A stretch of 64,000 nucleotides of DNA, taken from positions 1 to 64,000 of the forward strand of contig CAVYXA010000005.1 of the NCBI GenBank assembly GCA_963772365.1, written 5' to 3'. The notes beneath the pieces are model-generated. The model saw nothing but the letters and a program-made list of their open reading frames with translations, searched no databases and had not been told where the DNA came from. This DNA is from an uncultured Verrucomicrobiae bacterium. Its GTDB lineage: Bacteria; Verrucomicrobiota; Verrucomicrobiia; Chthoniobacterales; UBA10450. Positions 4,719 to 62,744 of the stretch are shown here, in pieces. Positions within the stretch are counted from its first letter, which is position 1. The number at the start of each line of letters is the position of its first letter. The position numbers and the translations under genes were made by a program.

Positions 4719-7283
4719 ATGACTACGGCACCACAGACTTCGCGTCCTGAGACATCTGCAACGGCTCCGCATTTTAAAGCCGCATCGCCGGCCCCGCGGC
4801 AAGAACCGCCTGTTGCCGAACAGCGGCTGGAGGCAGGCCGTGGCATCGATTTTCGGCATCTTTGGCACACCTTAACGGAGCGAATTTGGATTCTGGCGGT
4901 GTGCACAGTCGCAGGGCTGGCCCTGGCTCTCGCTTATCTGGCGCGCACCCCGAAGCTGTATCAGGGGCACGTCGTCATGGAGGTCGAGTTTGCCGAACCG
5001 ACCATGATGACCAACGAGGATTCAACCAGCCGGGTGCGCTCGATGTTTCTGGCCAGCCAGGAAGCGCTGCGCACCATCGAGCAGAATTTCACCAATCGCA
5101 CTCTGATGGCTCGCGTCATCCGCGCTGAAGGCCTGGCCGACGACGATGGCCGTGCCTTGTTAGGCTTGGGGAAAACCGCCCCAAGCGCCTCCAAGGCATC
5201 GCCTTCAGTGACGCCAAAGCGAAGCGCTCCCTCAACGCTGGAACAGGAGTCCGCCTTTACGCCTACCGAAGAAGCATTGGCTGGCGCCCTTTCCACGATG
5301 GTTAAGCCAGTGATCCGCCGCGGCACACGCCTCATCGATCTCTACGTGACAAACCCCGATCCAGTTATGGCTAACCGGCTCGCAGAAGCCATTGGCCGCG
5401 AATACATCCGTAATTCCATCGAGCGCCGCGCTTCCTTCACCCAGGACACGTTGCGCTTTTTGCTGGAAGAAGAGGAACGACTGAAAGCGAATTTGCAAAA
5501 AAGCGAAGCAGCCGTGGCCGATTACAAAGAGAGGACACCGGATGCGCTCCAGCTGGGCGGAGGCGCCGCTGCGACCGGCACGCAAACAGGCGCCGGAGGA
5601 GGCGGAACTCGGGGCGGGCTGGTTGAGGACAAACTTCAGGAGCTGAGTGCAAAACTGATGGGCGCCAAGACCGATCGCCTCCATCTCGAAGGGGAACTTC
5701 GCCAGGTAGAAGACGCCGGCGACGACTTGACCGCGCTTCTGGCAATTCCCAGCATCGCGAATGCGCCGGTCGTGGCCGAACACCGTCACGAACTGAGCCA
5801 GATCGAATCAAACCTGGCTACGCTGGCGCAACGTTATAAGGAAAAACATCCCAAAATGATCGCCGCGCAGGCCGCCCTTGCCGAAACTCAAAACGCATTG
5901 CGCCGCGCCGTGCTCGAACAACCTTCCGTCTTGCACAATGCTGTCGATCAAGCGCGACTCACGGAAAAGAATCTGGACCTTGCCACCCACGAGCAGGAGA
6001 AGGCGGCCCTCGCCCTCAACAAAGCCGCCATTGGCTATCAAGAGCTCGCGCGCCAGGCCGAAACCGATCGCGCCCTTTACGAGAGTGTTCTTCGGCAGAT
6101 CAAGCAGGCCGACTTGAGCAAAGGGCTAAAAACAACTGCCGTCAGTGTCGTTGAACACTCGCCAGTCCCACGAACGCCGGTCAGTCCCAGCGCACAGAAA
6201 TCCGTCGCGCTTGGTCTGCTGGGCGGTCTTGCTGCCGGTCTCGGAATCATTTTCGGGTTGAATGCGCTGGATCGCTCCATAAAGACAGTCGATCAAGCCG
6301 AGAGTGCGCTCGGTCTTCCGGTATTGGCCGCCATTCCTGAAGTAAAACGCGACCAAGCCTCTGCTCGGCCTGCGGACGAATCCGCCCCGCCCGCGGGTAG
6401 CGCAAGTTACCGCCTGATGGCGGAAGCGCCCGAAGGCCCCGCCGCGGAAGCTTTCCGCAATCTGCGAGCAGCATTATCGCTTCTCGGGCCCGAAGCCGAA
6501 CGCAAGATTTCCTTGTTTACCAGCGCGCTGCCCACGGAGGGGAAGAGTTTTACGAGTGCCAATTACGCCCTGGCGCTTACCCAACAGGGTTATCGCGTTC
6601 TTTTGATCGACGGGGATCTGCGCCGGCCGGGTCTTCACAAGATTTTTATTCGAGCTTCTCACAGCGACAACGGCGCGACGGAGCCGGATATAAATGTAGC
6701 AGGTCTTGTTGATTACTTGATAGGCGAAATCACACTCGAAAAAACGGTCCGCCCGGTCGCCGCGCGTGACGTGGATGTTTTTGGGAGCAGGCCTGCCGGC
6801 GAGCGTACCGTCACTTCGACAGGCGGCGAGTTATATATATTGGTTGGCGGCCGCCGCGCCCCCAATCCCGCCGAATTGCTCAGCGGCAATTCGTTCCGCG
6901 AACTGATGGTTGAAGCGGCAAAATCATTCGATCGAGTGGTGATCGACAGCGCCCCGCTGTTGGCCGTGAGTGACACCCTCCTGATGGCGCCGCATGTGCA
7001 AACTGTTTGCATGGTTGTGCGCGCCGCTAAAACGGCCCGCAATGCCGTACAACGAGCCCTGGCTCTTCTCGCCGGGGCGGGCAAACGACCCGCCGGCGTT
7101 GTTCTCAATCGTCTGCCCAAGCGCCGCGGGACCGGCTATTACTACTACTACGCCTCGCACGGATACGGCGTCGGCGAAGGCTCGTATCCGGCGGATACGT
7201 CCTGCGCAATTAAGGGCGCAGGGCAGAGAAGCGGGGAGCGGGGAGCACGGGGTAGGAAGCTATTCCAGCCGTTACCGAATTAA
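4719..7283 (+). CDS. wzc: Polysaccharide co-polymerase/tyrosine autokinase; true stop probably TAA 7211-7213 after a 1-nt indel near 7188
   Basis: Two TM segments, coiled coil, Walker A PTEGKS, DGDLRRP, VVIDSAP, tyrosine cluster GYYYYY. Confidence 0.92.
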   Translation: MTTAPQTSRPETSATAPHFKAASPAPRQEPPVAEQRLEAGRGIDFRHLWHTLTERIWILAVCTVAGLALALAYLARTPKLYQGHVVMEVEFAEPTMMTNEDSTSRVRSMFLASQEALRTIEQNFTNRTLMARVIRAEGLADDDGRALLGLGKTAPSASKASPSVTPKRSAPSTLEQESAFTPTEEALAGALSTMVKPVIRRGTRLIDLYVTNPDPVMANRLAEAIGREYIRNSIERRASFTQDTLRFLLEEEERLKANLQKSEAAVADYKERTPDALQLGGGAAATGTQTGAGGGGTRGGLVEDKLQELSAKLMGAKTDRLHLEGELRQVEDAGDDLTALLAIPSIANAPVVAEHRHELSQIESNLATLAQRYKEKHPKMIAAQAALAETQNALRRAVLEQPSVLHNAVDQARLTEKNLDLATHEQEKAALALNKAAIGYQELARQAETDRALYESVLRQIKQADLSKGLKTTAVSVVEHSPVPRTPVSPSAQKSVALGLLGGLAAGLGIIFGLNALDRSIKTVDQAESALGLPVLAAIPEVKRDQASARPADESAPPAGSASYRLMAEAPEGPAAEAFRNLRAALSLLGPEAERKISLFTSALPTEGKSFTSANYALALTQQGYRVLLIDGDLRRPGLHKIFIRASHSDNGATEPDINVAGLVDYLIGEITLEKTVRPVAARDVDVFGSRPAGERTVTSTGGELYILVGGRRAPNPAELLSGNSFRELMVEAAKSFDRVVIDSAPLLAVSDTLLMAPHVQTVCMVVRAAKTARNAVQRALALLAGAGKRPAGVVLNRLPKRRGTGYYYYYASHGYGVGEGSYPADTSCAIKGAGQRSGERGARGRKLFQPLPN
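7214..7260 (+). repeat. Degenerate heptamer array (GGGGAGC-type), arm downstream of the four-helix-bundle gene
   Basis: AGGGCGC AGGGCAG AGAAGCG GGGAGCG GGGAGCA; GCGGGGAGCGGGGA (7231-7244) is the exact reverse complement of 7749-7762. Confidence 0.85.
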
Positions 7284-7637
7284 CATTCGGATGAATCCAA
7301 GCAGCATCCGGCTCTCTTGCTCCAGACCCGATACGATCTTGGCTTCATCAACCCGTTGCAGGTAGGCGTTTCTGCCCAGCAGAAACAGGATGTTGGCTAC
7401 TTCAAATGTCGAGCGCCGCGCCATGTTCAGAAAGTTCGCAAGGTCGGCCTTTGAAACGCTCCCGGAACCTTCTGCGATGTTATTCGTGATGCTTAGAGTC
7501 GCCGCGCGCAGCTGCTCGGCAAAACGAAAAAGACGCCTGCGCTCAAGTTGATCCGCCAACCGAAAAACCTCGGCGCTAAGTGTTGCCGCGTGCTTCCACA
7601 CCTCTAAGTCCTGAAAACGAAACTGCTTCTCTTTCAT
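7272..7637 (-). CDS. Four-helix-bundle protein (23S rRNA IVS protein / bAvd-like family)
   Basis: FQDLEVWK, QLRAATLSITNNIAEGSG, FLNMARRSTFEV motifs; 121 aa. Confidence 0.93.
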   Translation of the reverse strand: MKEKQFRFQDLEVWKHAATLSAEVFRLADQLERRRLFRFAEQLRAATLSITNNIAEGSGSVSKADLANFLNMARRSTFEVANILFLLGRNAYLQRVDEAKIVSGLEQESRMLLGFIRMLIR

Positions 7638-7677
7638 AGACGCCCAGAGATACTAACTCCAGTCTCGCTCCGCTAGT

Positions 7678-7801
7678 CCTTTCCCCCTGCCCCCCCGCAC
7701 CCTGCTCCGAGCTCCCTGCCGTCTGCTCTCTGCTCCCTGCCCTTTGCTTCCCCGCTCCCCGCCCTCTCTGCTCTCTGCCCCCCTGCTCCGAGCTCCCCAC
7801 G
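7678..7801 (+). repeat. Long degenerate heptamer array (GCTCCCT/GCTCCCC-type), arm upstream of the four-helix-bundle gene
   Basis: About 120 bp of 7-periodic pyrimidine-rich units, inverted relative to 7214-7260. Confidence 0.9.
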
Positions 7802-7804
7802 GGG

Positions 7805-9328
7805 CTACTGGCCTCGCCCAAAGAGCATCGTATACACCGTCTTCAACAGGATCATGGCGTCGAGCTTTAGCGAATAGTGCCTGATGTAATAGAGATCGTA
7901 TTGAAGTTTTTCGAGCGCGTCCTGTTCGTTTTCGCCGTAGGGATAATTTACCTGGGCCCAGCCGGTGATGCCGGGTTTCACCAGGTGGCGAAAATGATAA
8001 AGCGGGATTTTCTTCTCGTACCGCTCGGCGCACTTGATCCATTCCGCGCGCGGCCCGATCAAGCTCATATCGCCGCGAAACACGTTCCATAGTTGCGGCA
8101 ATTCATCAAGACGCAGCCGGCGCAGCCAGCGCCCCACGCGCGTGACCCGCGGATCGTTCTCCCGCGTATAAATGTCGTCGTCTGTTTCCGCGCCCGGCTC
8201 GCGCACAAACATCGTGCGGAACTTGTAAGCGATGAAAGAATGCCCTTCCCGTCCGATACGCACCTGCCAAAAAATCGCCGGGCGCCCGCTCTCCAGCCAG
8301 ATCAGCAGCGCGATCAATCCGAACAGTGGGGCAAAAATCAAGAGCAGGGTGGCAGAGCAAATCAGGTCGAAAAGTCGTTTCAAGTAATGATACGGCGAAA
8401 TCCGGGCGAGCTGAAATCCGATCTGCAACGGCCAGAAGGGATCGATTGTGTCCATGGGCACATGACGCCAATGGGTTTCGTGAAACGATTCCAAAGTGTA
8501 AACCCGGGCGCGCTGGAATTGCGTCCGGACCAGACGCTCGATCAATTTCGGTTCGAGCCGATCCATCCTCTCGGCCAGGATCACGCCGCTATAATGCCGA
8601 TCGAGCTGTGCGAGTTTTTCGCCGATACCGCTCTGGATAATGGGCGAGCCTTCCCCGGCGATTGTCGATCCAGCGCGCGCCGGATTATCATCCACAAAGT
8701 CCAGTTGCTGCTGGTTCACCGACCTTTTGTAAGCTTCGTAAAATCGCGCCGCCCGCTCTCCACTCCCGATCACGAGAAATGCCCGCTGTGCCGTTGAAGC
8801 GGCAAGCCAATGACGAAGAAATCGCCGGTAAAAAAGCGAGACTGGGAGAAACACGACGAAACTCACCAACAACACGCCACGGCTCGGTTTCATCGACGCA
8901 TCGAACGCCGCCGCGGAATAAAGCAAAAGCGCGCTGATCGCAGCCGCGCCTGCGATGGCGAGAACATGCTCGGTCGTGTAAGTGAGGCCGAGCATTTCCG
9001 TATTACGGTTGTAACCGCCGATGATGTAGAGCGCCTGCACAATCACCGCGACCACCACGCAATCCACCAGGACAAACTCAAAAGGATCGACAAAGAACGC
9101 ATCGCGCCGCAGATGGCCCACCGTGCCATAGATCACGACCCAACAAAGAATATCGCAGACAAAATAGAGCATCGCAGTCGCCCAGTCGTGCCTCCGAATT
9201 TTGGACAGGATGTGCCAGGGCCGATGGCGCCTGGATTCAACCGGCGCCGGCCAGGGTCGTTGTTCGCCCGAAGGGCGATCAACTCCGGGGTCTAATCCGA
9301 TTTCGGTTCCCGATTGCTGGGTCAACAT
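7805..9328 (-). CDS. EPS polyprenyl glycosylphosphotransferase (initiating sugar transferase)
   Basis: KRLFD, YKFRTM, DPRVTRVGRWLR, LDELPQLWNV.RGDMSLIGPR, KPGITGWAQV. Confidence 0.95.
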   Translation of the reverse strand: MLTQQSGTEIGLDPGVDRPSGEQRPWPAPVESRRHRPWHILSKIRRHDWATAMLYFVCDILCWVVIYGTVGHLRRDAFFVDPFEFVLVDCVVVAVIVQALYIIGGYNRNTEMLGLTYTTEHVLAIAGAAAISALLLYSAAAFDASMKPSRGVLLVSFVVFLPVSLFYRRFLRHWLAASTAQRAFLVIGSGERAARFYEAYKRSVNQQQLDFVDDNPARAGSTIAGEGSPIIQSGIGEKLAQLDRHYSGVILAERMDRLEPKLIERLVRTQFQRARVYTLESFHETHWRHVPMDTIDPFWPLQIGFQLARISPYHYLKRLFDLICSATLLLIFAPLFGLIALLIWLESGRPAIFWQVRIGREGHSFIAYKFRTMFVREPGAETDDDIYTRENDPRVTRVGRWLRRLRLDELPQLWNVFRGDMSLIGPRAEWIKCAERYEKKIPLYHFRHLVKPGITGWAQVNYPYGENEQDALEKLQYDLYYIRHYSLKLDAMILLKTVYTMLFGRGQ

Positions 9329-9451: not shown

Positions 9452-10233
9452 TCAATCTTTTCTTTCGATACTCTCTTTCTCGATCAACAAACGGCTCGAC
9501 AACAGGAACTCGGCGATTGTGCGTTGGGCCACGTAAAACCAGCCTGGCCAACCATCAAAAATCAGACCTCGAGCAAGGAGGAGATAGAAAAACATGGCCG
9601 GCGCAGCCGGGAAAATTCTTCGGCGCAATCGGTCCTGGAAGTTGAGTTCCTTCAACGGCGTCGAAAGCAAATGCTTTGCTTCGATCCTTGGCGTAGCCGT
9701 CTTGCGCCCGTAGCCAGTAGTTAAACGGCTTGCGATCGTCATGGTCGATCTTGCCGGTCAACTTTTCAATCGTACCACCGACAACGACGCGATGACCGTG
9801 GCCTTCATCGCGATAATGAGCCAGGCGACGCCGATAAAGAACGGTTCGGGGTGGATAGACCGTGCTCCGCAGCGGATGACCAAAAATACAGTAGCGGAAC
9901 TCCACGGAATAGCCGGCGACAGCCGACGGCGGATCGAGAACGCGAAGTTCCTCGACCAATTCCGGCGTAAGCACGTAATCGGCGTCCATCGACAACACCC
10001 ATTCGGTCGCGATCTCGCTTCAGCCCGAAATTACATTGGGCGGCAAAAGAATCGAAAGCGCGCGTCACGATTCGCACGTTTGCATGTGCCCCGCGAGCAA
10101 TCTCGAGTGTCCCGTCGGTGCTCCCGCTGTCGATGATAACGATCTCCTTCGCCCACGACAGCGCGGCCAAAGTGCGTCCAATGTTCAGCGCTTCGTTGTA
10201 GGTAAGGACCGAACCTGTGACCTGATCTAGCAT
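9452..10233 (-). CDS. GT2 glycosyltransferase split by two frameshifts
   Basis: LTYNEA..IIDSGSTDGT (ORF 9805..10242), MDADY (9555..9998), C-terminal DGWPGWFY (9452..9742). Confidence 0.8.
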
Positions 10234-10258
10234 GAACAACACACTCGATTATTCTCAA

Positions 10259-10618
10259 TCACGAGCCGCTCACAAATTCCATCCGATCGCGTAGATTCGC
10301 AGCCGGCGATTCCGACAGAATCCGAATGATTCGCCGGGCGAGCTCGCCCGGTCCCCACTTCTGCTGCGGGACGAGAATAATTCCGCTATGACTCTTACCA
10401 GCTCTCAGCCATTCCGTGTGAATCCAGGCGAATTCCGCGATGTTGCTCGTTATCAGGACGCGATTTGCCTCCGCTGCAAATCGCAGTTGTTGTTCATCGG
10501 TTTGCCGAGCCATGGCCGCTTCCGATGTCGTCAGCAGGATCACGCCACGAGAACGCAGCGCGCGGATTAGGGCGTCCGATTGAACATCCTCGTCCAGGTA
10601 GAGTTCTGGCAGACTCAC
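10259..10618 (-). CDS. DUF5615 PIN-like protein (putative toxin)
   Basis: LYLDEDV, DEQQLRFA, LITSN.AEF, HSGII; overlaps the DUF433 gene. Confidence 0.85.
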   Translation of the reverse strand: MSLPELYLDEDVQSDALIRALRSRGVILLTTSEAAMARQTDEQQLRFAAEANRVLITSNIAEFAWIHTEWLRAGKSHSGIILVPQQKWGPGELARRIIRILSESPAANLRDRMEFVSGS

Positions 10619-10887
10619 ACTGGATGTGGTTCGGGAGAGAGTCTTTCAGCCGTAGCATCCTCTTGACGCAATGCCGCATCAATTTCATCGGGATTAGCCA
10701 ATGCATGGGTCAGCGCTGCATACACTTGCGGCAATGAGAGAGAATTCAGAAGGCCGATTATCTCTTCGGGCGAATACCCACGTCGATAGTAGCGGGCAAC
10801 CCGATGAACCGGAACGCGTGTGCCTGCCAGGCATGGATGGCCGCCGCAAACGCCGGGGGTCTGCTCAATCATAGCGCCGATACTCAC
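10615..10887 (-). CDS. DUF433 domain protein (putative antitoxin)
   Basis: PGVCGGHPCLAGTRVPV..GYSPEEI..LSLPQVYAAL. Confidence 0.9.
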   Translation of the reverse strand: MSIGAMIEQTPGVCGGHPCLAGTRVPVHRVARYYRRGYSPEEIIGLLNSLSLPQVYAALTHALANPDEIDAALRQEDATAERLSPEPHPV

Positions 10888-11149
10888 GCATCGAGGTTAT
10901 CATCCATCTTTTGACAACGCAATCAACGACGTGATGTCGATCTTCGAAGTCGATCATTCCGACCGGTCGCCAGCCATCAACATTGTCATCCAAAGATACG
11001 GCACTCGCCCTGCGCCTCGGAACTGCAAGTTGACGAAACCTGTTTCGGTCAGGAGACGCGACAGCGTTTTGCGGCTCCAGAGTTTGATGTAGGCTTGCCC
11101 TGATTTGACGGACGGTGGGCTTAGGGTCAAAACCCGAAGGAGAGTCCAC

Positions 11150-11500
11150 ATGAAGACGCAGTTAAGTAAACCGGTTCGCAACCGGGCAAACTACACCGAA
11201 GAGTATAAGCAGCAGGCGCTGGAGCTTTGGCGCGCCAGTGGTCGCAGTGCGGCCAAAGTGGCGGCCGAGCTGGGGATTCGTCCTCCGTTGCTTTATCGCT
11301 GGGCACGCTTGGAGCGCTTGCCTCAGAGCGGCCCGAGCGCAGCAGCCAAGCCAAGGCGCAGCATGGAAGAACTGGAGCGGGAGAACCAATTCTTACGGGC
11401 CGAAAACGCCAGGCTTCTTGAGCAGAGGGACATTTTAAAAAAGTCTCTGGGCATCCTCTCCGAAGCGCCGCCGAGCGCTACGTCCAAGTCGAAGGTATGA
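11150..11500 (+). CDS. IS3 transposase OrfA
   Basis: YTEEYKQQAL..VAAELGI..LYRW HTH and leucine zipper; AAAAAAG -1 frameshift motif at 11437-11443. Confidence 0.9.
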   Translation: MKTQLSKPVRNRANYTEEYKQQALELWRASGRSAAKVAAELGIRPPLLYRWARLERLPQSGPSAAAKPRRSMEELERENQFLRAENARLLEQRDILKKSLGILSEAPPSATSKSKV

Positions 11501-12345
11501 GTGGGCAATATAAGATCGCCCGCTTGTGCGAAGCTTTGCTCGTTTCGCGCAGCGGCTTCTATGATTGGAAGCAGCGGCACCATCATCCAGGAGCGCGCCA
11601 GTTAGATAACGCTCGCCTGGTCGAGCAGATCCGGCAGGAGTTTGTCCGCAGTCGCCACACCTACGGCAGTCCACGGCTAGCGCATGCTCTGGGCTGTCCA
11701 GGAAGACGCAATCGCATTGCTCGGCTGATGCGCGCACAAAGACTTTTCGCTCGGCAGCGTTCCAAGTATCGGGTCAAAACCACCGATAGCGCTCACGGTG
11801 GCCCCATCGCACCGCACCGTCTGCGCCATCTCAAGGTACAAGCGCGCGATCAGGTCTGGGCCACTGATGCCACTGGCATCTTGACCGCTGAAGGTTGGCT
11901 TTACCTGGTCGCAGTGCTGGACCTCTTTAGCCGGCGGGTGGTGGGTTGGGCCATGAGCCCCATCCTGGATGCGCCACTGGCCATCAGCGCTCTGCGCATG
12001 GCCTTAAATCAACGTCGTCCCGCCCGCTCCCTCATCCTTCACTCCGATCGCGGCAGCCAGTTTGCCAGCGCCGCTTACCGGCAGGTCCTCTCGCAGCACC
12101 AACTCATTGCTTCCATGAGTCGCGCCGATAACTGCTACGACAATGCTTTCATCGAATCCTTCTGGAGCAGCCTCAAATACGAACTGGTCTACGACCAGCG
12201 CTTCGCTACTCGCGCACAGGCTCGCACCGCCGTCTTCGGCTACATTGAAACCTTCTACAACCGCATCAGACTGCACTCCAGCCTTGCCTACACCAGTCCG
12301 ATTAATTTCGAAATCAAAAACAAAACTAACAAAAATAGACTATAG
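11497..12345 (+). CDS. IS3 transposase OrfB (DDE integrase core)
   Basis: YGSPR, WATD, LYLVAVLDLFSRRVVGW, HSDRGSQF, CYDNAFIESFW, YNRIRLHSSL. Confidence 0.95.
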   Translation: MSGQYKIARLCEALLVSRSGFYDWKQRHHHPGARQLDNARLVEQIRQEFVRSRHTYGSPRLAHALGCPGRRNRIARLMRAQRLFARQRSKYRVKTTDSAHGGPIAPHRLRHLKVQARDQVWATDATGILTAEGWLYLVAVLDLFSRRVVGWAMSPILDAPLAISALRMALNQRRPARSLILHSDRGSQFASAAYRQVLSQHQLIASMSRADNCYDNAFIESFWSSLKYELVYDQRFATRAQARTAVFGYIETFYNRIRLHSSLAYTSPINFEIKNKTNKNRL

Positions 12346-12885
12346 GAATTGATCCCTACCTAACTGTCCGAAAAATCAATGCAAGCCCAATGTGACCCCC
12401 GCGCCACAGTGGATTCAAATGTTGGTCCCATCGATTTAACAGGGCAATGAGCAAGTTTTTTAAATACCCGTGATACGGTGTGGAGCAGATAAATCGTCCG
12501 CCGGGTCGGAGTGCGCGATAACACCCACGCGCAAAAGCATGTGGATCATAGAGATGCTCGATCACCTCAGTGCTAATGACGATGTCGAAGGGATCGCAGC
12601 CCAGGTTTTCCAGAATCTGTTCGTCCGCAGCCAGAGATTCAAACCGGGCCTGCGGATATGTTTGGCGGGCGATTGCGATGCCATCCGCGCTGGCATCGAT
12701 GCCGACAACGTCACAGCCTTTCCCCAAAAATATTCCGGCTGTATAACCGTTGCCGCAACCGACGTCGAGGATGCGCGTTTTCGGGCTCAACGGTCCGCAT
12801 AGCGTCATCACGTGCGGCATGAAGCGCCGATGCATGTGCGAAGCGCCGGCATCGCGCCATCCATAGATTTCCTGCGGCTGCGAAC

Positions 12886-13030
12886 TCATTGGGTTACCAC
12901 CGTTCCCGGCCGCGGCCCGGCGCCAATGACCCAATTATAAACGTCATGCATTTGGCGGGCCACCACGGACCAACTGAATTGCTTCTGGACTAACGACAGC
13001 CCGCGTTGTCCCATTGCCTCGCGACGACCC
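12886..13030 (-). pseudogene. Orphan C-terminal fragment of a GT4 glycosyltransferase
   Basis: RREAMGQRGLSLVQKQFSWSVVARQMHDVYNWVIGAGPRPGTV resembles the C-terminus of 14584..15738; its TGA overlaps the methyltransferase ATG. Confidence 0.75.
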
Positions 13031-14583: not shown

Positions 14584-15738
14584 TCAGTCGAATCGCACAG
14601 TTGCCGGCGACGGGCCGCCGCCGATCACCCATTGATAGACGGCGCGCATTTGTTGACCGATGTCCGGCCACGAAAATCGATCTCGAACAAGTGCGAACCC
14701 GCGTTCGCCCTTCTCGCGCAGTCGTAAATCGTCCATTTGGAACAATCGCTGCAATCCTACGCTGATCGATTCGGCGCTCGTGCCGATTCGAATTGCTGCA
14801 TTCGCCTCAAACCCCTCCGGTAGATTGCACTCCGGTGTCATGAGCACTGGTTTGGCATATGCCCACGCTTCCAGGATCGACATTGGCAAACCCTCACTCA
14901 ACGATGGTAACACAAACGCATCGCACGCGCGGTAAACCTCGTCTTTCTCCGCTCCAAATTTCGGACCCATAAAAACGACCGAATCTCCAATTTCTACTTC
15001 GTCCTTTAGCCTTTCCAATTCCATTCGGTATCCGCCCTGGTCCCATCCGGCGATCGCCAAAACCCACTTTCGTGAATCTCGATTTCCGATTTCCGATTTC
15101 CGATTTTGAGCAAAAGCTCGAATGAGCGCCGCCAGATTCTTCTTCGGATGCAACCGCCCGAGATAAAGCAGCATTCGCGTTTCTACTTTCTCCTTTGTTT
15201 TTTCTTCTGGCAGATTGATTCCATTTGGAATGATGCACACGGGATTGCGTAAGCCGTACTCGCGGACGCTCCGATATTCGGCCTCGGAAAGGACGTGAAT
15301 GCACGCAGCGCTGCGATGGGCAGCGTTCTCCCAAAGGGCGCCGACCAGCCGCTTTTTCCACGCCGAATTTCGCACGGCCCAAGCGTCCAACATCCCATGG
15401 ACGGTATAAACTAGAGGCCGTTTTGTTCGGCGATACCAGCGATACGCGACGAGCGAATGATACGTCCACAAACCGTGCACGTGTGCGATGTCCGGTTCCG
15501 CTGCGGCCAACGCCTGTAAGTAACCGGGCGCGTAGCCCAAACTGTGCGGACCGACGCGCGGAAAAATCTTGGGCTGCAACGGCAACCAACTCGCAAGATC
15601 GACATCGGTAAATTCATCGGCTACACCGAAAACAGTGACTTCATCGTCTTCCGCGATTGCACGTGCCAAGCCGCGGGCGCTCTCCAATAACCCGCCGCTC
15701 CTTCGCGAGATCGAGTCGTGTAGAAATGCGATTTTCAT
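14584..15738 (-). CDS. GT4 glycosyltransferase
   Basis: HVHGLW, HGML, YLGRLHPKK, LPSLSEGLPMSILEAW. Confidence 0.93.
   Translation of the reverse strand: MKIAFLHDSISRRSGGLLESARGLARAIAEDDEVTVFGVADEFTDVDLASWLPLQPKIFPRVGPHSLGYAPGYLQALAAAEPDIAHVHGLWTYHSLVAYRWYRRTKRPLVYTVHGMLDAWAVRNSAWKKRLVGALWENAAHRSAACIHVLSEAEYRSVREYGLRNPVCIIPNGINLPEEKTKEKVETRMLLYLGRLHPKKNLAALIRAFAQNRKSEIGNRDSRKWVLAIAGWDQGGYRMELERLKDEVEIGDSVVFMGPKFGAEKDEVYRACDAFVLPSLSEGLPMSILEAWAYAKPVLMTPECNLPEGFEANAAIRIGTSAESISVGLQRLFQMDDLRLREKGERGFALVRDRFSWPDIGQQMRAVYQWVIGGGPSPATVRFD
15080..15107 (-). repeat. In-frame heptamer array (GAAATCG x4, first unit AAAATCG; encodes NRKSEIGNR)
   Basis: Plus strand CGATTTC x3 + CGATTTT inside the GT4 CDS. 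Confidence 0.9.
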
Positions 15739-18277: not shown

Positions 18278-19447
18278 TTAAAACGGATTCACTTTTTCAA
18301 AACAGTCAAAAAACATGTTGCGGTACTTCGGCGCGAGCACGGGCCAGCTAAAGCGTTGGCGCACGTAATCTCGGCGCCGTTCCGCGTCCGCCGGGGTATC
18401 ATGTTCGTTTAATTGATTCAACAGCAGCGCTGCCAATGCTCCCGGCTGTGACAGATCCGCGACAGTTCCTTCGCTCCCCAGCACGAACCGCATCACCGGG
18501 TGATCATGCGCGATCACGAGCAGACCATGAATGAGCGCCTCCAGAAAGACGCGGCCAAATCCTTCTCGCAACGACGCGAGAACGAACAAATCAGCTGCCC
18601 GATAGTAATCGGCAACTTGCTCGTGCGGCACTGAACGCGCGGTGAAATTTTCGTCGCCGAGTTTCTCGCGAGCAAGATCGACAATTGCGCGACTCCCCTC
18701 ATCCATCGTTCCCAACATGACCAGATAAGGAGCTGACTCGGTTCTGACCTCGGACCTCTGTCTTCTGACTTCCGCGACCAGCGAAGCGACTTCTCTAACC
18801 ACGTAATCCATTCGCTTCTGTTTCGCTGAAATCCAGCCAACGGTTAGAATAGTTGGTCGATCACTCGGGAGATTCAGTTTGTGCCGCAGCGTGCCTTTTG
18901 TCTCGTCGCGTCGGTCGGGCTCGCTCTCCGGCACATTGATTCCGTATGGGACCACACGATGTCGTGCCGGTGCTTCCCCCGCCGCGATAGCCTCGTCATA
19001 ATGGAATGGGGCAACCTGATGAACATAATCCGTGCGATCGAAGGGCGGATGACACGGCCCGCCGTTCGAGAAGAGAAGTCGGAACGGTACCCCGATCTGC
19101 TTGCGCCAGCGAAAAAGCTGAAAGCCAAGATTCGAATCACTGTAGAAAATTATATCGGGCTTGTGCTTGCGAATCTCCTGCACCATCGCGGGAAACGTTG
19201 AGAGCTGTTCGACCGTATAGCTATCCCGTCGAACCAGCTTCCCGAGTAAACACGTTACGACACCAGTCCGTCGTAAATTCCAGAGAACGTGTTCATCCAG
19301 TTTTTCCTCCCCTGCTCCCTTGTAGAGCGTAACATCCAGTCGTTCGGTCCGTGATAATGCATCAAACGCCTGTCGAAAGAATGTCTCGATGCCGCGGTCG
19401 ATAATCCCGACGCCGCTGCAACAGAAGAAAATCTTTAATGGCTGCAT
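18278..19447 (-). CDS. GT4 glycosyltransferase
   Basis: RGIE, KRMD, YRAADLFVLASLREGFGRVFLEAL; heptamer insert AEVRRQRSEVR at 18743-18775. Confidence 0.92.
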   Translation of the reverse strand: MQPLKIFFCCSGVGIIDRGIETFFRQAFDALSRTERLDVTLYKGAGEEKLDEHVLWNLRRTGVVTCLLGKLVRRDSYTVEQLSTFPAMVQEIRKHKPDIIFYSDSNLGFQLFRWRKQIGVPFRLLFSNGGPCHPPFDRTDYVHQVAPFHYDEAIAAGEAPARHRVVPYGINVPESEPDRRDETKGTLRHKLNLPSDRPTILTVGWISAKQKRMDYVVREVASLVAEVRRQRSEVRTESAPYLVMLGTMDEGSRAIVDLAREKLGDENFTARSVPHEQVADYYRAADLFVLASLREGFGRVFLEALIHGLLVIAHDHPVMRFVLGSEGTVADLSQPGALAALLLNQLNEHDTPADAERRRDYVRQRFSWPVLAPKYRNMFFDCFEKVNPF

Positions 19448-29148: not shown

Positions 29149-30891
29149 GTGCGCCCGTTGACCGCTCTCGCTTTCAAAGTCCAATCCCGACTCCCTCGTA
29201 GCCGCGCTGTCCATGTCGATCTTATCCTGGCGGCCCTGGTGCTCGTCGCGCTCTGGTTCATTCTGTGCCGGCACCTCAGCGGCGAATGGACGGTCAATGA
29301 GCAATATAATTACGGCTGGTTCGTTCCGTTCCTGGCGCTCTTCCTTTTCTGGCTGCGCTGGGAGGATCGGCCGCCGGTCAGAGGTCAGAGGTCAGAGGTC
29401 AGAGGCCAGAATTCAAAGAACTGGTTGGCAATCGCAATTGCGATCATCGGGCTCTTCTTGCTTTTGCCGATTCGGCTCTTTGAGATCGGCACACCGGAAT
29501 GGCGGCCGCTTGGTTGGATTCACGCCGCGGTTGTGGTAACGATCACGCTCCTTACGATCGGGACGATTGGCGGCCAACCGTGGCTCCGTCATTTTGCCTT
29601 TCCGGTTGCCTTCTTTTTCGTGGCGGTTCCGTGGGTCACGCCGATTGAGGTCCCGATTATTCAAGGATTGATGCGGACCGTCGCCAGTGTCGCCGCGGAA
29701 ACTGCGGCGCTTCTGGGAATCCCGGCTCAACTGGAGGGCAATCTCGTTCGTATCCCGAACGGGCTGGTCGGTGTGAACGAAGCGTGCAGCGGCGTGCGCT
29801 CGTTGCAGACGTCTCTCATGATCGGCCTGCTCTTCGGCGAGCTAAGGCGCCTGTCGATCCTGCGCCGCATTGCGCTTGTCGCGGGGGCAATCGCGATTGC
29901 GCTGGTGGCAAATTTCGGACGCGCCGTGTTTCTGGTTTGGGTAGCCGCGGCAAAAAGTATTCCCGAGATCGATCGCTGGCACGATGTCGCAGGATATACC
30001 ATGGTCGGGCTGGTTTTCCTTGGCTCATGGGGATTAGCGGCATTGCTCGGCAAAGAAAAGAGAGCCGGCGAAATCGGCCATCGGCCATCGGCAATCGGCA
30101 ATCCTTCTTTCACTATTCGTCCTTCACTCTTGCTCATGGCTCTTATTTGGATCGGCGCCGTGGAAATCGGCACCCATCTCTGGTATCGCGCCCACGAACG
30201 AAACCTGGTGGCCAGCACGCCTTGGGGAATTCGCTGGCCCGCGACGGCGTCAAATTTTCGCGAACTGAAGATCGGCCAGGATGTCCGGCGAATCCTGCGT
30301 TTCGACCGCGGCTCGGCTGCTTCGTGGACATCGACAGTTCCAACTCCGGCCGAAACGACGCAGCCGCGGGGCGTGCGACCGGTGACTTGTTTGCTTTATT
30401 TCTTCCGGTGGAATCCCGGTCGAAACAGCGTGCTCATTGCCAATTTGCATCGGCCCGATGTTTGTTTGCCGGCAGTCGGGTGGAAACAGGTCGCCGATAA
30501 TGGCGTGAAAATTTTTCCGGTGACGCCGACGTTCAACCTGCCATTTCGGCATTTTGAGTTTCGCCACGGCGCCGAGCACAACCCCACTGCACAGGTCGCG
30601 CATGCTTTTTACTGTTTGTGGGAAGATCGCGCCACCGATCCCGCTGCCGCCGCTGCCAGGCTGCCGCAAATGGCGGATGTCCCTTCAGCCTGGACGCGCA
30701 GCGAACGCGTCCGCGCTGTGATCGAAGGCCGGCGCCACCTCGGCCAGCAAGTAATGGAATTGGTTATCGAAACCCGTGGCCCGCTCGATGTCGATCAAGC
30801 CAACGCCCAGTTCGCGCAAGCCTTGCCCGGTTTGATCGAACTGCACAGCCAAACCGCTGTGGCCAACGACGGATCCACATCGCCAAAATGA
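29149..30891 (+). CDS. Exosortase-family protein fused to a C-terminal EpsI-like domain (start uncertain)
   Basis: QYNYGWFVP, VNEACSGVRSL (Cys), VANFGR (Arg), WHD (His); HRPDVCLPAVGW EpsI-like motif. Confidence 0.88.
   Translation: MRPLTALAFKVQSRLPRSRAVHVDLILAALVLVALWFILCRHLSGEWTVNEQYNYGWFVPFLALFLFWLRWEDRPPVRGQRSEVRGQNSKNWLAIAIAIIGLFLLLPIRLFEIGTPEWRPLGWIHAAVVVTITLLTIGTIGGQPWLRHFAFPVAFFFVAVPWVTPIEVPIIQGLMRTVASVAAETAALLGIPAQLEGNLVRIPNGLVGVNEACSGVRSLQTSLMIGLLFGELRRLSILRRIALVAGAIAIALVANFGRAVFLVWVAAAKSIPEIDRWHDVAGYTMVGLVFLGSWGLAALLGKEKRAGEIGHRPSAIGNPSFTIRPSLLLMALIWIGAVEIGTHLWYRAHERNLVASTPWGIRWPATASNFRELKIGQDVRRILRFDRGSAASWTSTVPTPAETTQPRGVRPVTCLLYFFRWNPGRNSVLIANLHRPDVCLPAVGWKQVADNGVKIFPVTPTFNLPFRHFEFRHGAEHNPTAQVAHAFYCLWEDRATDPAAAAARLPQMADVPSAWTRSERVRAVIEGRRHLGQQVMELVIETRGPLDVDQANAQFAQALPGLIELHSQTAVANDGSTSPK
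29376..29417 (+). repeat. In-frame heptamer array GGTCAGA x4 plus 2 degenerate units
   Basis: Encodes VRGQRSEVRGQNSK in an exosortase loop. Confidence 0.95.
30071..30104 (+). repeat. In-frame heptamer array C(C/A)ATCGG x~5
   Basis: Encodes EIGHRPSAIGNP at the exosortase/EpsI junction. Confidence 0.9.
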
Positions 30892-31632: not shown

Positions 31633-33465
31633 GTGGCCACAACGGATTTCATGCTCACAGCCGAAGAGCGGCGGCTCAAGCGGCTCAAGCGGCGTCGCAT
31701 TGTATTGTCGATCGTCAGCGTGGTCGTCGTACTGGTCATTGGCTACTTCGCGGGGCGATCCGCACTGAATGCCGTTAAAGCCTGGCAGGCGCGCCGGCAC
31801 GCCGGAAAAGCATTTCGCTACATCGAGGCGGAACAATGGATCGACGCCCGAAATGAAGCGACCGCTGCCTATCAACTTCGCCCGACCGAGCCGCAGGCGA
31901 TGCGCGCGGTGGCGCGGTTCCTTTCCCGCACCCGCCAGATCGAAGCGCTGGATTTTTGGAAACAACTCCGGACGTCTTCGGTGCCGCTGAGTCGGCAGGA
32001 TTTGCGCGACGAGGCCGCGATCGCAATTTCTGCCGGCGAAACCTTGCGGGCCGAAGAAGCCGTGCGCGCGCTGTTGGCGACCAAACCGGAACCGACTGAT
32101 TGGCTGCTCGCGGCCCAACTGTCGATCCATAAAGGCGTGCCCGAGGGAGCGACTGGGTTCCTCGACAAAATATTCAACGATGCGCGCGCCACCGAGCGCG
32201 AACAATTTCAAGCTGCGCTGCTCAAGCTGACTACCGCGACGGACCCTGCATTGGTGGACGCCGCATGGGCGCAGGTGGAAAAACTTTCTCGTGGTCAAAG
32301 CGCGACCGCGCTCGATGCCCTCGTGATCCTGGCCAGTCGCGCGCTGTCGGAGGTCAGAGACCAGAATTCAGAGGACAGAAATCAGAGGTCAGGGGCTGAG
32401 AAACTGAGCCGGGCCCTGGAAACGCATCCGCTGGCAAAGGCGCCGCAGAAATTGATCGCGCTCGATCTGCTCGAACATGTCGATCCTGCGCAGCGACAGG
32501 CCTTGATCGGGCGCGCCATTGCCGAATGGAAAGATGCCGAGCCTTCATCGCTGGCCGCGCTGGCGACGTGGCTCAATGGCAAGGGCGAATATCAACGCGA
32601 GCTCGACACCATCCCGCTTAGCAAAACGCTGCAAAACCGCGAGCTTTTCCTCCAGCGCCTCGACGCGCTGGCCGCACTTGACCGCTGGGAGGAAGTCAAA
32701 CAACTCGTGGACAACAACCGTTTTCCACTCGACCCGTTCGTCCAAAAAATGTATCTGGCGCGATGCAACGCCAAGCTGGGCGAAAAAGTCGCTGCCGAAA
32801 ACAATTGGCAGCGGGCATTGGAAGACACAGCTGGCGATCCGACCAAACTGATGACAGTGGGCGATTACGCAGAAAAGAACGGCCTGCTTGATATAGCTGC
32901 TTCCGCCTACAATAACGCAATCGCCGAGGCGCCAAAATTGCGTGCCGCCTACCAGGGCCGATTGCGAGTCGCGCAAGCCGGTGGCAACACGAAAAATATT
33001 CACGCTGTAGTCGCCGATATGCTGCGGGTGTGGCCTAACGATCCCGCAGTTCAAAATGACGAAGCCTATTTGCGATTGCTGCTGCTTGGAGGATCGGGAT
33101 CTCCGGCATCGGGAGAAGAACACGAGCCTCCGGCTGAGGCCTCAACATTCAATGCTCAAGGTTCAACGCTCGATGAAATCGAGAAGCTGGGTGAAAAACT
33201 AGTGCAGAAAAATCCTGCCAGCATGCCCCATCGAACACTGCTGGCTCTGGCACGGCTGCGCCAAAATCGCCCGGCAGATGCCCTGGCGACCTATGCCAAC
33301 ATTCAGGTGACGCCGCGCGCGCTTACGCCCTCGGCACTCGCTGTCCACGCTGCGGTATTATCCGCCAACGGGCACGAGGAGGACGCAAGAGCGGAAGTCG
33401 GCCAGGTGCGGGTTGAAGATCTCTTGCCGGAAGAACGCGCCCTGATCGCAGGTGTCCGGAAATAG
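31633..33465 (+). CDS. Membrane-anchored TPR-like helical protein, paralog A
   Basis: N-terminal TM after KRRR, Ala/Leu-rich helical repeats, colinear with 37982..39769; heptamer inserts at 32347-32393 and 33141-33175. Confidence 0.8.
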   Translation: MATTDFMLTAEERRLKRLKRRRIVLSIVSVVVVLVIGYFAGRSALNAVKAWQARRHAGKAFRYIEAEQWIDARNEATAAYQLRPTEPQAMRAVARFLSRTRQIEALDFWKQLRTSSVPLSRQDLRDEAAIAISAGETLRAEEAVRALLATKPEPTDWLLAAQLSIHKGVPEGATGFLDKIFNDARATEREQFQAALLKLTTATDPALVDAAWAQVEKLSRGQSATALDALVILASRALSEVRDQNSEDRNQRSGAEKLSRALETHPLAKAPQKLIALDLLEHVDPAQRQALIGRAIAEWKDAEPSSLAALATWLNGKGEYQRELDTIPLSKTLQNRELFLQRLDALAALDRWEEVKQLVDNNRFPLDPFVQKMYLARCNAKLGEKVAAENNWQRALEDTAGDPTKLMTVGDYAEKNGLLDIAASAYNNAIAEAPKLRAAYQGRLRVAQAGGNTKNIHAVVADMLRVWPNDPAVQNDEAYLRLLLLGGSGSPASGEEHEPPAEASTFNAQGSTLDEIEKLGEKLVQKNPASMPHRTLLALARLRQNRPADALATYANIQVTPRALTPSALAVHAAVLSANGHEEDARAEVGQVRVEDLLPEERALIAGVRK

Positions 33466-51794: not shown

Positions 51795-54047
51795 ATGCTA
51801 CGCAATAAGATCTATTACCGCGTAAAACCGTTCATACCTCCGGCGGTCCGAACCGCCGTCCGGCGGAAAGTCGTCAGACGACTCCGCAATGGCGTCGGGA
51901 ACATATGGCCCATCATGCCCGGCTCGGAACGGCTGCCGCAAAGCTGGGAGGGTTGGCCGAACGGAAAGAAGTTTGCGCTGGTTCTAACTCACGATGTAGA
52001 AGGTCGCGCCGGGTTAGCTCGGTGCCGTGATCTGATGAAGCTGGAGATGGATCTCGGTTTCCGTTCTTCGTTCAATTTTGTCCCGGAAGGTGAGTACCGC
52101 GTCCCTCGAGAATTAAGAGAAGAGTTAACTCAAAATGGCTTCGAGGTGGGACTCCACGATTTGCGTCATGATGGGCGATTGTTCGAATCGAAGCGGGAAT
52201 TCAGTCGGAATGCGTCGCGAATTAACCATTACGTGGCCGACTGGGGCGCGGCTGGATTCCGCTCCGGGTTCATGCTGCACAAGCTCGAGTGGCTTCATGA
52301 ATTGAAGGTTAAATACGACGCCTCCACTTTCGATACCGATCCATTCGAGCCCCAGCCGGAAGGGCGTCACACGATTTTCCCGTTCTGGGTTCCGGCTCCC
52401 GAAGTCGAAATTAGCCGGGCAATCAAACATCAAACATCAAACATCAAACATTCTGGCGGCGGCTACGTCGAGCTCCCTTACACACTTCCTCAGGATTCCA
52501 CACTCTTCCTATTGTTAGGCGAAACGACGATCGACATCTGGAAACGCAAACTCGATTGGATCGCGGAGAACGGGGGGATGGCCTTGCTGATCACACATCC
52601 CGATTACATGAGCTTCCGTTCGAAGCCAGACAGGACAGACGGGTATTCGGCTGCGCTCTATACTGAATTTCTCCAGTACGCCCAATCCAGATACGGCGGA
52701 CAATATTGGCATCCTCTGCCAAACTCGATTGCCGAGTTTGTCGTTCAACAAAAATGCGAATTGGCGTCCGGAGATAGTGCGGAAGCAAAGCATCCGATTT
52801 CCACTGGAATCAATGGTACCAATGGCAAGCTCCCGCCTGCGTCATTGGATCGACTGCGAGGCAAGCGCGCAGCGGTGCTTCTATTCTCCTATTATCCTGC
52901 TGATCCGCGACCCCGGCGGGCTGCGGAAGCGCTGGCCAGAGAAGGACTGATTGTCGATCTAATTTGTCTTCAACAAAATTGGAGAGAGGCACGAAGAGAA
53001 ATGATCAACGGAGTCAACGTTTTGCGAATTCCGGTAAAGCGCTCCCGCGGCGGTCAGTTGCGATACGTTTTCCAGTACTCCTCTTTTATTTTGCGGTGCT
53101 TTTTTCATCTCACTTTTCGCTCGTTGCTCCGACGGTATCATCTGGTTCACGTCCATAACATGCCGGACGTGCTCGTGTTCAGCGCGCTGGTTCCAAAGAT
53201 GTTAGGCGCGAAGATCGTCCTGGATCTTCACGATCCTATGCCGGAATTGATGCAGTCCATCTTCGGTCTTTCGCAGGAAAGCTGGAGTGTGCGCTTCCTG
53301 AAGCGACTGGAACAATGGAGCATTCAATTTTCCGATGCGGTGATCACCGTCAATGAAGCCTGCCGCAGGATTTACAGCAGTCGCAGTTGTTCCAAGGAAA
53401 AAGTCAGCGTGGTAATGAACGCGCCGAGTGAGGAGTTGTTCCCGCTTTCGCCTCCCGCTTTCAACTCTAATGGTCGCAATGGAGATTCATCGCGGCCATT
53501 TGCCATTTTGTACCATGGTTCCCTCGTGCCGCGAAACGGGTTCGACCTCGCCGTGGAAGCACTTCGCACGGCAACGAAGAGTGTGCCTGCGGCGGAGCTT
53601 TGGGTTTGCGGTGAAAGGACCCCTTTCTTTGACCAGGTCATGGCAAATGCGGAAAAGTCGGGGATCGGCCATGCCGTTCACTACCTGGGGCCGAAAGATC
53701 GACACGAAATTGCCGATGTGATTCGCCGCTGCGATGTGGGCGTGATTCCAAATCAACGAAACATATTTACCGAGATCAACACACCCACTCGAATCTTCGA
53801 GTGTCTCACGCTGGGCCGGCCAGTAATCGCGCCGCGGGCAGCAGGGATTCAGGACTATTTTGGCGATGATGACCTGATCTTTTTTGATTTGGGGGATGCA
53901 AACGACCTGGCGCGCAAGATCGAGTTTACTTTTTCACAGCCGGAATCTGTGGCGCGCATCGTCGAGCGAGGGCAGCAGGTCTACCGCGCTCACAGTTGGA
54001 CTCAGGAGAAATCAGTACTTCTGCAGACTCTCAGTAATTTGTTCTAG
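51795..54047 (+). CDS. Polysaccharide deacetylase-like domain fused to a GT4 glycosyltransferase
   Basis: LTHDVE, EVGLHD, GFRS, THPDY; then DPRPRR, HVHNMPD, DLHD, PTRIFE; ATCAAAC x4 insert at 52422-52449. Confidence 0.88.
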   Translation: MLRNKIYYRVKPFIPPAVRTAVRRKVVRRLRNGVGNIWPIMPGSERLPQSWEGWPNGKKFALVLTHDVEGRAGLARCRDLMKLEMDLGFRSSFNFVPEGEYRVPRELREELTQNGFEVGLHDLRHDGRLFESKREFSRNASRINHYVADWGAAGFRSGFMLHKLEWLHELKVKYDASTFDTDPFEPQPEGRHTIFPFWVPAPEVEISRAIKHQTSNIKHSGGGYVELPYTLPQDSTLFLLLGETTIDIWKRKLDWIAENGGMALLITHPDYMSFRSKPDRTDGYSAALYTEFLQYAQSRYGGQYWHPLPNSIAEFVVQQKCELASGDSAEAKHPISTGINGTNGKLPPASLDRLRGKRAAVLLFSYYPADPRPRRAAEALAREGLIVDLICLQQNWREARREMINGVNVLRIPVKRSRGGQLRYVFQYSSFILRCFFHLTFRSLLRRYHLVHVHNMPDVLVFSALVPKMLGAKIVLDLHDPMPELMQSIFGLSQESWSVRFLKRLEQWSIQFSDAVITVNEACRRIYSSRSCSKEKVSVVMNAPSEELFPLSPPAFNSNGRNGDSSRPFAILYHGSLVPRNGFDLAVEALRTATKSVPAAELWVCGERTPFFDQVMANAEKSGIGHAVHYLGPKDRHEIADVIRRCDVGVIPNQRNIFTEINTPTRIFECLTLGRPVIAPRAAGIQDYFGDDDLIFFDLGDANDLARKIEFTFSQPESVARIVERGQQVYRAHSWTQEKSVLLQTLSNLF

Positions 54048-59385: not shown

Positions 59386-59451
59386 CTGTCCTCTGCCATC
59401 AGTCGTCTGTCCTCCTCTTCTGACTTCTGATCTCTGACCTCTGACCTCTGG
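59386..59451 (+). repeat. Intergenic pyrimidine-rich heptamer array (CTGACCT-type) ending 2 nt before an ATG
   Basis: CTGTCCT CTGCCAT CAGTCGT CTGTCCT ... CTGACTT CTGATCT CTGACCT CTGACCT. Confidence 0.9.
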
Positions 59452-62652: not shown

Positions 62653-62738
62653 TCCGTCCTCCGTCCTCTGACTTCTGACTTGTGTCGTGTGTCGCCCATC
62701 CGTCCTCTGAACACTGACCTCTGACATCTGATCTCTGA
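62653..62738 (+). repeat. Intergenic pyrimidine-rich heptamer array complementary to the in-gene array at 61845-61890
   Basis: TCTGACATCTG (62720-62730) is the reverse complement of CAGATGTCAGA (61877-61887). Confidence 0.9.
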
Positions 62739-62744
62739 AATAGA

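Follow-up and report, generated by a model that had tools for sequence, protein, structure and literature searches.

The first 64,000 nucleotides of contig CAVYXA010000005.1 from an uncultured Verrucomicrobiae bacterium (GCA_963772365.1), referred to here as the window and numbered on the forward strand, start at the contig end and carry, between a wzc gene and a sugar-transferase gene, a small gene for a four-helix-bundle protein enclosed by two mutually inverted arrays of 7-base units. This junction is the focal site of the present analysis (G, C and L numbers below are our handles for genomes, contigs and loci), and its features are the following:

4719-7213, plus strand: flanking Wzc-like tyrosine autokinase (TIGR01007, over the cut-off), open to 7283 as assembled
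7214-7256, plus strand: downstream arm of about 5-6 units in the opposite orientation to the upstream arm, ending at the predicted wzc stop
7231-7244, no strand assigned: downstream half of a perfect 14-bp inverted match (repeat scan of 6800-8200)
7272-7637, minus strand: four-helix-bundle gene, 121 aa (TIGR02436/PF05635), belonging to the clade with GAGC-core arms
7638-7677, minus strand: non-repetitive leader in the sequence, separating the upstream arm from the start codon
7678-7804, minus strand: upstream arm (purine-rich) of about 15 degenerate heptamers around a GAGC/GGGC core, beginning directly after the sugar-transferase stop
7749-7762, no strand assigned: upstream half of the 14-bp inverted match (same repeat scan)
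7805-9328, minus strand: flanking exopolysaccharide (EPS) polyprenyl glycosylphosphotransferase, the sugar transferase (TIGR03025, 344 bits, cut-off 295.55)

The original prediction had set a 121-aa gene between two inverted 7-periodic arrays, and the open reading frame (ORF), both arrays and the 14-bp match all lie where it placed them. In repeat scans the arrays themselves extend over approximately 7678-7798 and 7213-7256, and these inverted GAGC-core heptamer arrays occupy the gap between two convergent stop codons, with the sugar-transferase stop (7805-7807) as the cassette boundary on that side. Two longer but imperfect inverted matches accompany the perfect one (7213-7247/7731-7765, 35 nt, 71%; 7233-7252/7779-7798, 20 nt, 85%), and a 14-bp inverted match of the same geometry occurred in only 2 of 20,000 windows drawn at random from contig C1. 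On the other side, wzc as assembled runs through the small array as far as 7283. However, two of three aligned relatives carry an extra T after position 7187, and in that frame the gene stops at TAA 7211-7213; this supports the predicted true wzc stop at 7213 if one base is missing after 7187, through either an assembly error or a real frameshift. No tRNA gene was found in the window, and no Rfam match in 6800-8200.

The focal ORF matches TIGR02436 (79.5 bits, cut-off 24) and PF05635 (85.1 bits, cut-off 33.8). A structure model from an alignment of 65 sequences (predicted local distance difference test score, pLDDT, of 96), which superseded an earlier single-sequence model (pLDDT 63.5) that had retrieved generic bundles only, is predicted to share the fold of Xcc0516 (2GSC; Z 18.9, root-mean-square deviation (rmsd) 1.1, 111 residues aligned) and BT_0352 (2RLD; Z 17.1), with a template modelling (TM) score of 0.89 to that fold. 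The model was also matched to Avd, the accessory protein of diversity-generating retroelements (DGRs) (8UB7, Z 15.2; 4DWL, Z 14.7), with rmsd 1.6-2.3 over 106-116 residues at 12-13% identity, while the next unrelated bundle in the fold search scored Z 12.7. When the PDB was searched by sequence, 2GSC and 2RLD were retrieved and Avd was not; the link to Avd is one of fold only. By analogy with Avd and with Xcc0516, a homopentamer according to the text cited (PMC4990558), the focal protein may form a pentameric ring. The four-helix-bundle proteins are under purifying selection, with a median ratio of nonsynonymous to synonymous substitution rates (dN/dS) of 0.09 over 68 pairs; in a further 237 pairs dS was saturated.

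The search of the host's taxonomic family yielded at least 150 matches, counted among the matches listed. Flanking sequences were compared for 234 distinct homologues from the focal genome, its family, its phylum and named genomes. One locus from an unpublished genome was excluded beforehand, the unpublished genomes G008 and G003 enter the tallies only, and 20 homologues were dropped for short flanks or coverage below 70%, which left a set of 214 that is enriched in relatives of the focal protein (78/214). The inverted-flank score exceeded the 99th percentile of 2273 crude control genes (23/2273 by construction) at 149 of the 214 homologues, compared with 15 for flanks in direct orientation and 4.35% for mismatched pairs, and period-7 arrays stood on both sides at 105/214 homologues versus 9/2273 controls. 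Inverted 7-mer arrays are thus enriched around homologues relative to random genes, as the original prediction had expected. The arms have a median length of 4.4-4.6 units. In the focal genome itself there are 12 family genes, most of them with visible arms and with units that differ between genes, for example GTGACGA at C1:1307386 and a CAGA core at C5:68596. The focal locus is one copy of a widespread gene-plus-arms cassette.

The repeat unit goes with the protein clade across phyla, not with the host genome. The best period among the 214 loci was 7 in 151, 8 in 37 and 6 in 22, with none in 4, and 132 of the 151 heptamers contain GA when read in the upstream orientation. Where proteins are less than 40% identical, unit similarity is approximately 3.6/7; it rises to 5.5-5.9/7 for those more than 60% identical, and the units of nearest proteins match at 5.35/7, compared with 3.87 in 1000 permutations (maximum 4.18). 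On a FastTree tree of 131 rows, the core label changes 34 times versus 79.7 times after shuffling (minimum 74), and 22 versus 49 times within the focal family alone. Paralogues sharing a genome, in contrast, match at just 3.9/7. A GAGC unit was present in 39/54 proteins at least 45% identical to the focal protein and in 3/147 below 40%, and the proteins with such units span at least six phyla, including Verrucomicrobiota, Planctomycetota, Bacteroidota and Fidelibacterota. Together with the arm enrichment, this clade-specific unit speaks for the earlier proposal that gene and heptamer arrays form one system. One clade of 22 loci (L006 and L009 at G000 C5:226852 and 229395, plus 20 family loci) uses 6-base units with reversed polarity, the purine-rich arm lying upstream in only 2/22; its downstream arm is often translated into a low-complexity C-terminal tail. 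The usual polarity was also seen flipped at L130, where the pyrimidine-rich arm precedes a GAGC-clade gene and the purine-rich arm follows it.

The arms persist at old shared sites. At a gap-pgk-like junction (a label that we presume from the sequence), both arms are retained in 9/9 orthologues, and at a second shared site in 5/5, with an identical unit throughout; at these sites, as at a third with both arms in 5/8, fourfold-site identity is 0.32-0.34, that is, synonymous positions are nearly randomised. Within GAGC-clade arrays, identity at a lag of seven bases is 0.88, 0.89, 0.93 and 0.80 in the core versus 0.62, 0.58 and 0.74 outside it, whereas simulated uniform decay gave a flat profile at approximately 0.74; phase anchoring introduces some bias into this profile. 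The conserved core inside the arrays thus comprises 3-4 bases. Its fixed spacing resembles that of repeated binding sites, for which the four-helix-bundle protein would be the candidate binder, with one subunit per unit. Persistence at old sites and the short core together suggest that the arms are probably bound and maintained rather than being scars. Adenine-specific mutagenesis was considered as a source of the variable positions and was ruled out on inspecting the units.

Cassettes appear to be gained, lost and replaced at gene junctions. Among 29 loci with relatives of the sugar transferase, five retain the convergent wzc junction; four of these lack the gene, and the fifth (G017) holds a gene of another clade with a CAGA-type unit. 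The convergent stops are separated by 6 bases in G027, by 25 bases in G001 (same genus) and G031, the latter with a heptamer relic, and by about 130 bases with relic units in G029. The empty sites that the original prediction had proposed to look for at orthologous junctions were thus seen, next to a differently filled allele. Behind the same sugar transferase, a family gene was present at five loci with four unit types. Long tandem arrays after the sugar-transferase stop were also noted at L021 (G012) and L035 (G021), as a unit of about 37 bases and a mosaic of 7-base units, and the 3' junction of this gene looks like a hot spot for repeats.

GAGC cassettes follow 29 upstream gene families among 45 loci, and paralogues and relatives occupy pyrK-pyrD-like, cysD/cysN-like and ABC-transporter junctions as well as the interior of an hsdM-like gene, besides the gap-pgk-like junction. 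Scanning 50 of 90 neighbour fragments gave 35 with Pfam matches, of which 17 were judged sugar-pathway enzymes and the remainder unrelated. These sites do not bear out a restriction of the system to EPS loci, and the cassette is not specific to polysaccharide loci. The cassette is co-directional with the upstream gene in 177/201 callable cases; its arms start at a median of 1 nt past the stop of that gene (n=144) and end at a median of 4.5 nt ahead of the next start (n=130). At four of 177 cassette loci (L019 in G017, L024 in G026, L021 in G012 and L190 in G070), an inverted copy of 12-21 bases of the upstream gene's 3' end follows its stop; the longest such copy among 2276 control genes was 10.

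For the hsdM-like gene, six uninterrupted alleles are available. The G074 cassette replaces approximately 30-38 bases without duplication, both arms being in frame with the gene halves, and the focal genome shares the right junction with G074 but lacks 222 bases of the target. These two cassette-bearing loci are L012/L264 (G000 C1:1420380-1420864) and L265 (G074). In G074 the hsdM-like gene also has inserts of 63 and 81 bases, both in frame, and other small inserts were seen in the hsdM-like genes of relatives. No transposase, recombinase or reverse transcriptase was found among the 50 neighbour fragments, and no transposase in the focal cassette. The cassette thus has neither the transposase nor the target-site duplication of an insertion sequence or MITE (miniature inverted-repeat transposable element), the hsdM-like gene of G074 being the sole resolvable site; at the focal site a duplication is beyond resolution because the relatives are too distant (67-73% protein identity). 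As neither transposase, reverse transcriptase nor target duplication was found, we only infer how the cassette moves. A DNA read run (share 0.06) gave four short pieces without a joint, and nothing was concluded from it.

Arrays are also abundant away from family genes. The focal genome contains 150 period-7 arrays versus 11 after shuffling, while periods 5, 10 and 11 gave 12, 20 and 11 arrays, respectively. Just 16 of the 150 lie near a family gene, and 37 match the cassette unit of a relative exactly, compared with 10.2 for letter-shuffled units. Among 26 inverted pairs, 18 have no family gene between them; ten of these have cassette polarity, four are reversed and four are tied. Solitary arrays followed no clear polarity rule with respect to transcription (crude gene calls). 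Same-type arrays cluster at a cognate gene at C5 59-81 kb and in G035 at C2 373-407 kb. Per approximately 400 kb, the gene-poor genomes G027, G006 and G002 have 5, 4 and 9 arrays, compared with 13-20 in six windows of the focal genome and 32 on C5; fewer arrays in gene-poor genomes are suggestive at most, as this covers partial samples of three genomes, two of which (G027 and G002) hold broken genes. In these two, the four-helix-bundle genes (L338 and L337, respectively) are broken by mutually similar inserts of about 60-80 bases. The arrays of the window apart from the focal site are:

15080-15106, 18742-18772, 29376-29410, 30072-30103, 32346-32392 and 52422-52451: 7-base arrays without a family gene
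59419-59450, 61849-61919 and 62653-62739: CAGA/TCTG-type 7-base arrays, likewise without a family gene, the start of a cluster that runs to about 81 kb of the contig around the cognate gene at C5:68596

We propose that the gene and its two inverted arrays make up one cassette, subject to gain, loss and replacement at gene junctions, and that on DNA the protein likely binds its own repeat at the GAGC core and in this way keeps or renews the arms. We judge the chances of this model to be evenly balanced. A pentameric ring on arms of 4-5 units would provide about one site per subunit. Insertion would likely proceed via host recombination or repair, with a short stretch replaced and no target duplication, and since the cassette appears to depend on read-through, surviving insertions would mostly be intergenic and co-directional with transcription. 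The many gene-less arrays are probably derivatives, as REPINs are beside RAYT genes. An RNA stem would be a by-product, which may allow RNase III to cut the cassette out where it has landed in 23S rRNA.

Several other explanations were weighed against this model. That the heptamer arrays arise by slippage or come with transferred gene blocks, with the gene merely lying among them, would agree with the 134 of 150 focal-genome arrays away from family genes, the arrays in genomes that lack a cognate gene and the flanking genes common to some cassettes across phyla; it is largely refuted by the both-sided arrays around homologues, the position-specific conservation within units and the fact that units follow protein clade rather than genome, and we regard it as very improbable. 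A more serious candidate, which we still consider unlikely, is an intervening sequence (IVS) at the mRNA level, in which the arms pair in the transcript and RNase III frees the gene RNA; alternatively, the insertion would be neutral because the stem juxtaposes the stop and start on either side. The arms directly adjoin both neighbours, and in Coxiella the text cited describes RNase III cutting in the stem of a 23S IVS with the same family behind GACAGAT heptamers (PMC4990558). The focal arms do fold well: minus-strand RNA 7200-7810 gave a predicted -263.9 kcal/mol (z -4.19 versus 20 shuffles), with a predicted probability of 1.0 for the 12 pairs at the centre of the 14-bp helix, in line with the proposal that the arms could pair. 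The IVS-like role attached to it fared less well. Under selection for a sense-strand stem, G-U pairs should exceed A-C mismatches, and 169 two-armed loci gave 195:198; a stricter count in 153 loci gave 102:84, i.e., 55% (interval 47-62%), which leaves room for a weak bias, compared with 7:1 in a small control of 41 tRNA acceptor stems. Antisense duplexes were as stable as sense duplexes (83 vs 85 loci). Arm mismatches without a clear G-U bias thus weaken the mRNA-stem explanation; moreover, a clade-specific core is superfluous for pairing, and at the focal locus there is no coupling to rescue because the downstream gene is convergent. What remains in its favour is a weak register-specific pairing. 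Real arms paired slightly better than unit-shuffled arms, by a mean of -2.4 kcal/mol (n=118, p 5e-4; at the focal locus -68.3 versus -60.6, rank 0.017), and in 29/36 cases the match of an arm to its own partner surpassed that to other GAGC arms. Such own-arm pairing fits either homogenisation of arms in DNA or weak selection on RNA.

Somewhat less unlikely, though still doubtful in our view, is a post-transcriptional regulator, in which the ring binds GA-core repeats in mRNA, controls its own mRNA via the stem and, in trans, acts on the arrays at other junctions of long operons. TRAP provides a model for a ring that binds GA-core repeats in mRNA. The conserved core, the co-directional cassettes with arms next to the upstream stop, the grouping of same-type arrays around cognate genes and the long retention under purifying selection would all suit such a role. 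In addition, a post-transcriptional regulator was proposed by MacGregor for TAACTGA repeats, as far as the text cited goes (PMC4679880), and Avd sits in an RNA-protein complex according to the title of 8UB7. The strand symmetry of the arms argues against it, as do the reversed polarity of the six-base clade and gene-less arrays that follow the stops of plus-strand genes both ways (10 GA-type and 7 TC-type, with crude gene calls), and regulation alone does not account for clade replacement at one junction or for the hsdM insertion. Finally, much as Avd assists a reverse transcriptase, the protein might recruit one in trans to copy cassette RNA or to write repeats, which we hold to be highly improbable. 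The fold shared with Avd (PMC10053308, as far as cited) and the co-directional insertion at gene ends are in its favour; against it stand the low identity to Avd, the lack of a PF00078 match in the focal genome (90% complete) and of a reverse transcriptase among the neighbour fragments. Adenine-specific mutagenesis would also leave a different mark, as the conserved cores carry A on either strand across clades.

A number of points weigh against the cassette model with a DNA-binding protein. Its binding, movement and processing steps are all ones that we infer from sequence. Common descent of gene and arms would by itself couple unit to clade, and all p-values are overstated because related genomes are not independent. 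Among the 12 paralogues of the focal genome, only seven exceed the 99th and eight the 95th control percentile. At two older sites both arms remain in just 5/8 and 5/7 orthologues, the latter with a fourfold-site identity of 0.43, and the possible weak G-U bias and the better pairing of real arms described above leave some scope for RNA. Neither a catalytic motif nor an enzyme acting as partner was found for the protein. A strict GAGC array pattern had no match in the focal genome, and the GAGC-array-rich genomes G022, G024, G012 and G069 (57, 31, 20 and 17 overlapping matches) yielded no cognate-clade gene with this query, so that arrays do not require the cognate gene to be present now; the idea that arrays strictly depend on a cognate gene within their own genome is not supported.

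The assembly contains several probable frameshifts, for example a gene split into two frames at 9555-10242 (minus strand), which we take to be glycosyltransferase-like. A presumably IS3-like two-ORF element at 11105-12345 (plus strand) seemingly breaks a methyltransferase-like gene (10954-11181 and 12356-12934, minus strand), and the adjoining small gene pair at 10259-10887 seems to resemble DUF433/DUF5615 modules.

In its way of working, the cassette seems, by analogy, most like REPIN-RAYT systems (a REPIN being a doublet of repetitive extragenic palindromic (REP) sequences and RAYT the REP-associated tyrosine transposase), whose finer details are drawn on here as general background. As in the abstract of PMC3337134, a gene has its own class of inverted extragenic repeats, gene-less inverted doublets occur genome-wide and the system persists for long. 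Unlike RAYT tyrosine transposases, however, the protein is a four-helix bundle (all-helical TIGR02436), the arms consist of tandem 6-8-base units instead of palindromic REPs, and up to 12-14 paralogues with different units share a genome. The cassette anatomy is already known in rRNA, as the Coxiella burnetii 23S IVS (helix 45, S23p) is described in the text cited as having the family gene and GACAGAT heptamers, together with a terminal stem and cleavage by RNase III (PMC4990558). With ORF-bearing 23S IVSs, the focal cassette shares the protein family, the inverted arms, GA-containing heptamers upstream of the start codon and, in the predicted fold, terminal inverted repeats that can form a long stem. 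It differs in lying between two protein genes and not in rRNA, without an Rfam match, and in the purifying selection on its gene, whereas S23p is reported in the same source to be decaying. By location the focal locus is not an IVS; it is an IVS-type four-helix-bundle cassette outside rRNA, non-random and with a clade-to-repeat code. Avd has the same fold (4DWL, 8UB7; PMC10053308, as far as cited), but the focal locus lacks a DGR-linked reverse transcriptase and both of its neighbours are EPS genes.

Intergenic heptamers of about four units, often in convergent pairs, are described for Xanthomonas and Nostoc in the text cited (PMC4692102), which notes their over-representation without explaining it, and similar ones for Beggiatoaceae (PMC4679880) and Geobacter (PMC2700814). 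Like the cassette arms, they show the G-rich strand behind stop codons and its antisense ahead of start codons; the passages cited interpret them as quadruplexes or as sites for regulators and draw no link to the family. The term 'helix bundle' does not occur in the main texts of PMC4692102 and PMC4679880, supplements aside. Our literature search, which covered no supplements (e.g., the repeat tables of PMC4692102, which may list repeats beside xcc0516), found no paper that ties the family to intergenic inverted heptamer arms outside rRNA.

The cassette thus joins three loose ends, namely a very widespread family that has solved structures but no known function, the excess of intergenic heptamers and the origin of ORF-bearing rRNA IVSs. 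The clade-to-unit code predicts a cognate sequence for each protein and supplies natural non-cognate controls in the same genome. As a tentative possibility that we consider improbable on balance, four-helix-bundle pentamers would be sequence-specific repeat-binding rings, each clade reading a 6-8-base unit of its own; such rings would write or renew inverted arrays and mobilise the gene that encodes them without a transposase. They would form a class of selfish elements, the source of bacterial heptamers and of ORF-bearing 23S IVSs, and likely an ancestor or cousin of the Avd function in DGRs. If true, this would add both a type of genomic element that persists without a transposase and a family of small rings that read repeats. 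If the protein does recognise and maintain its own repeat, the 7-base repeats that are so puzzling in many bacterial genomes would be explained.

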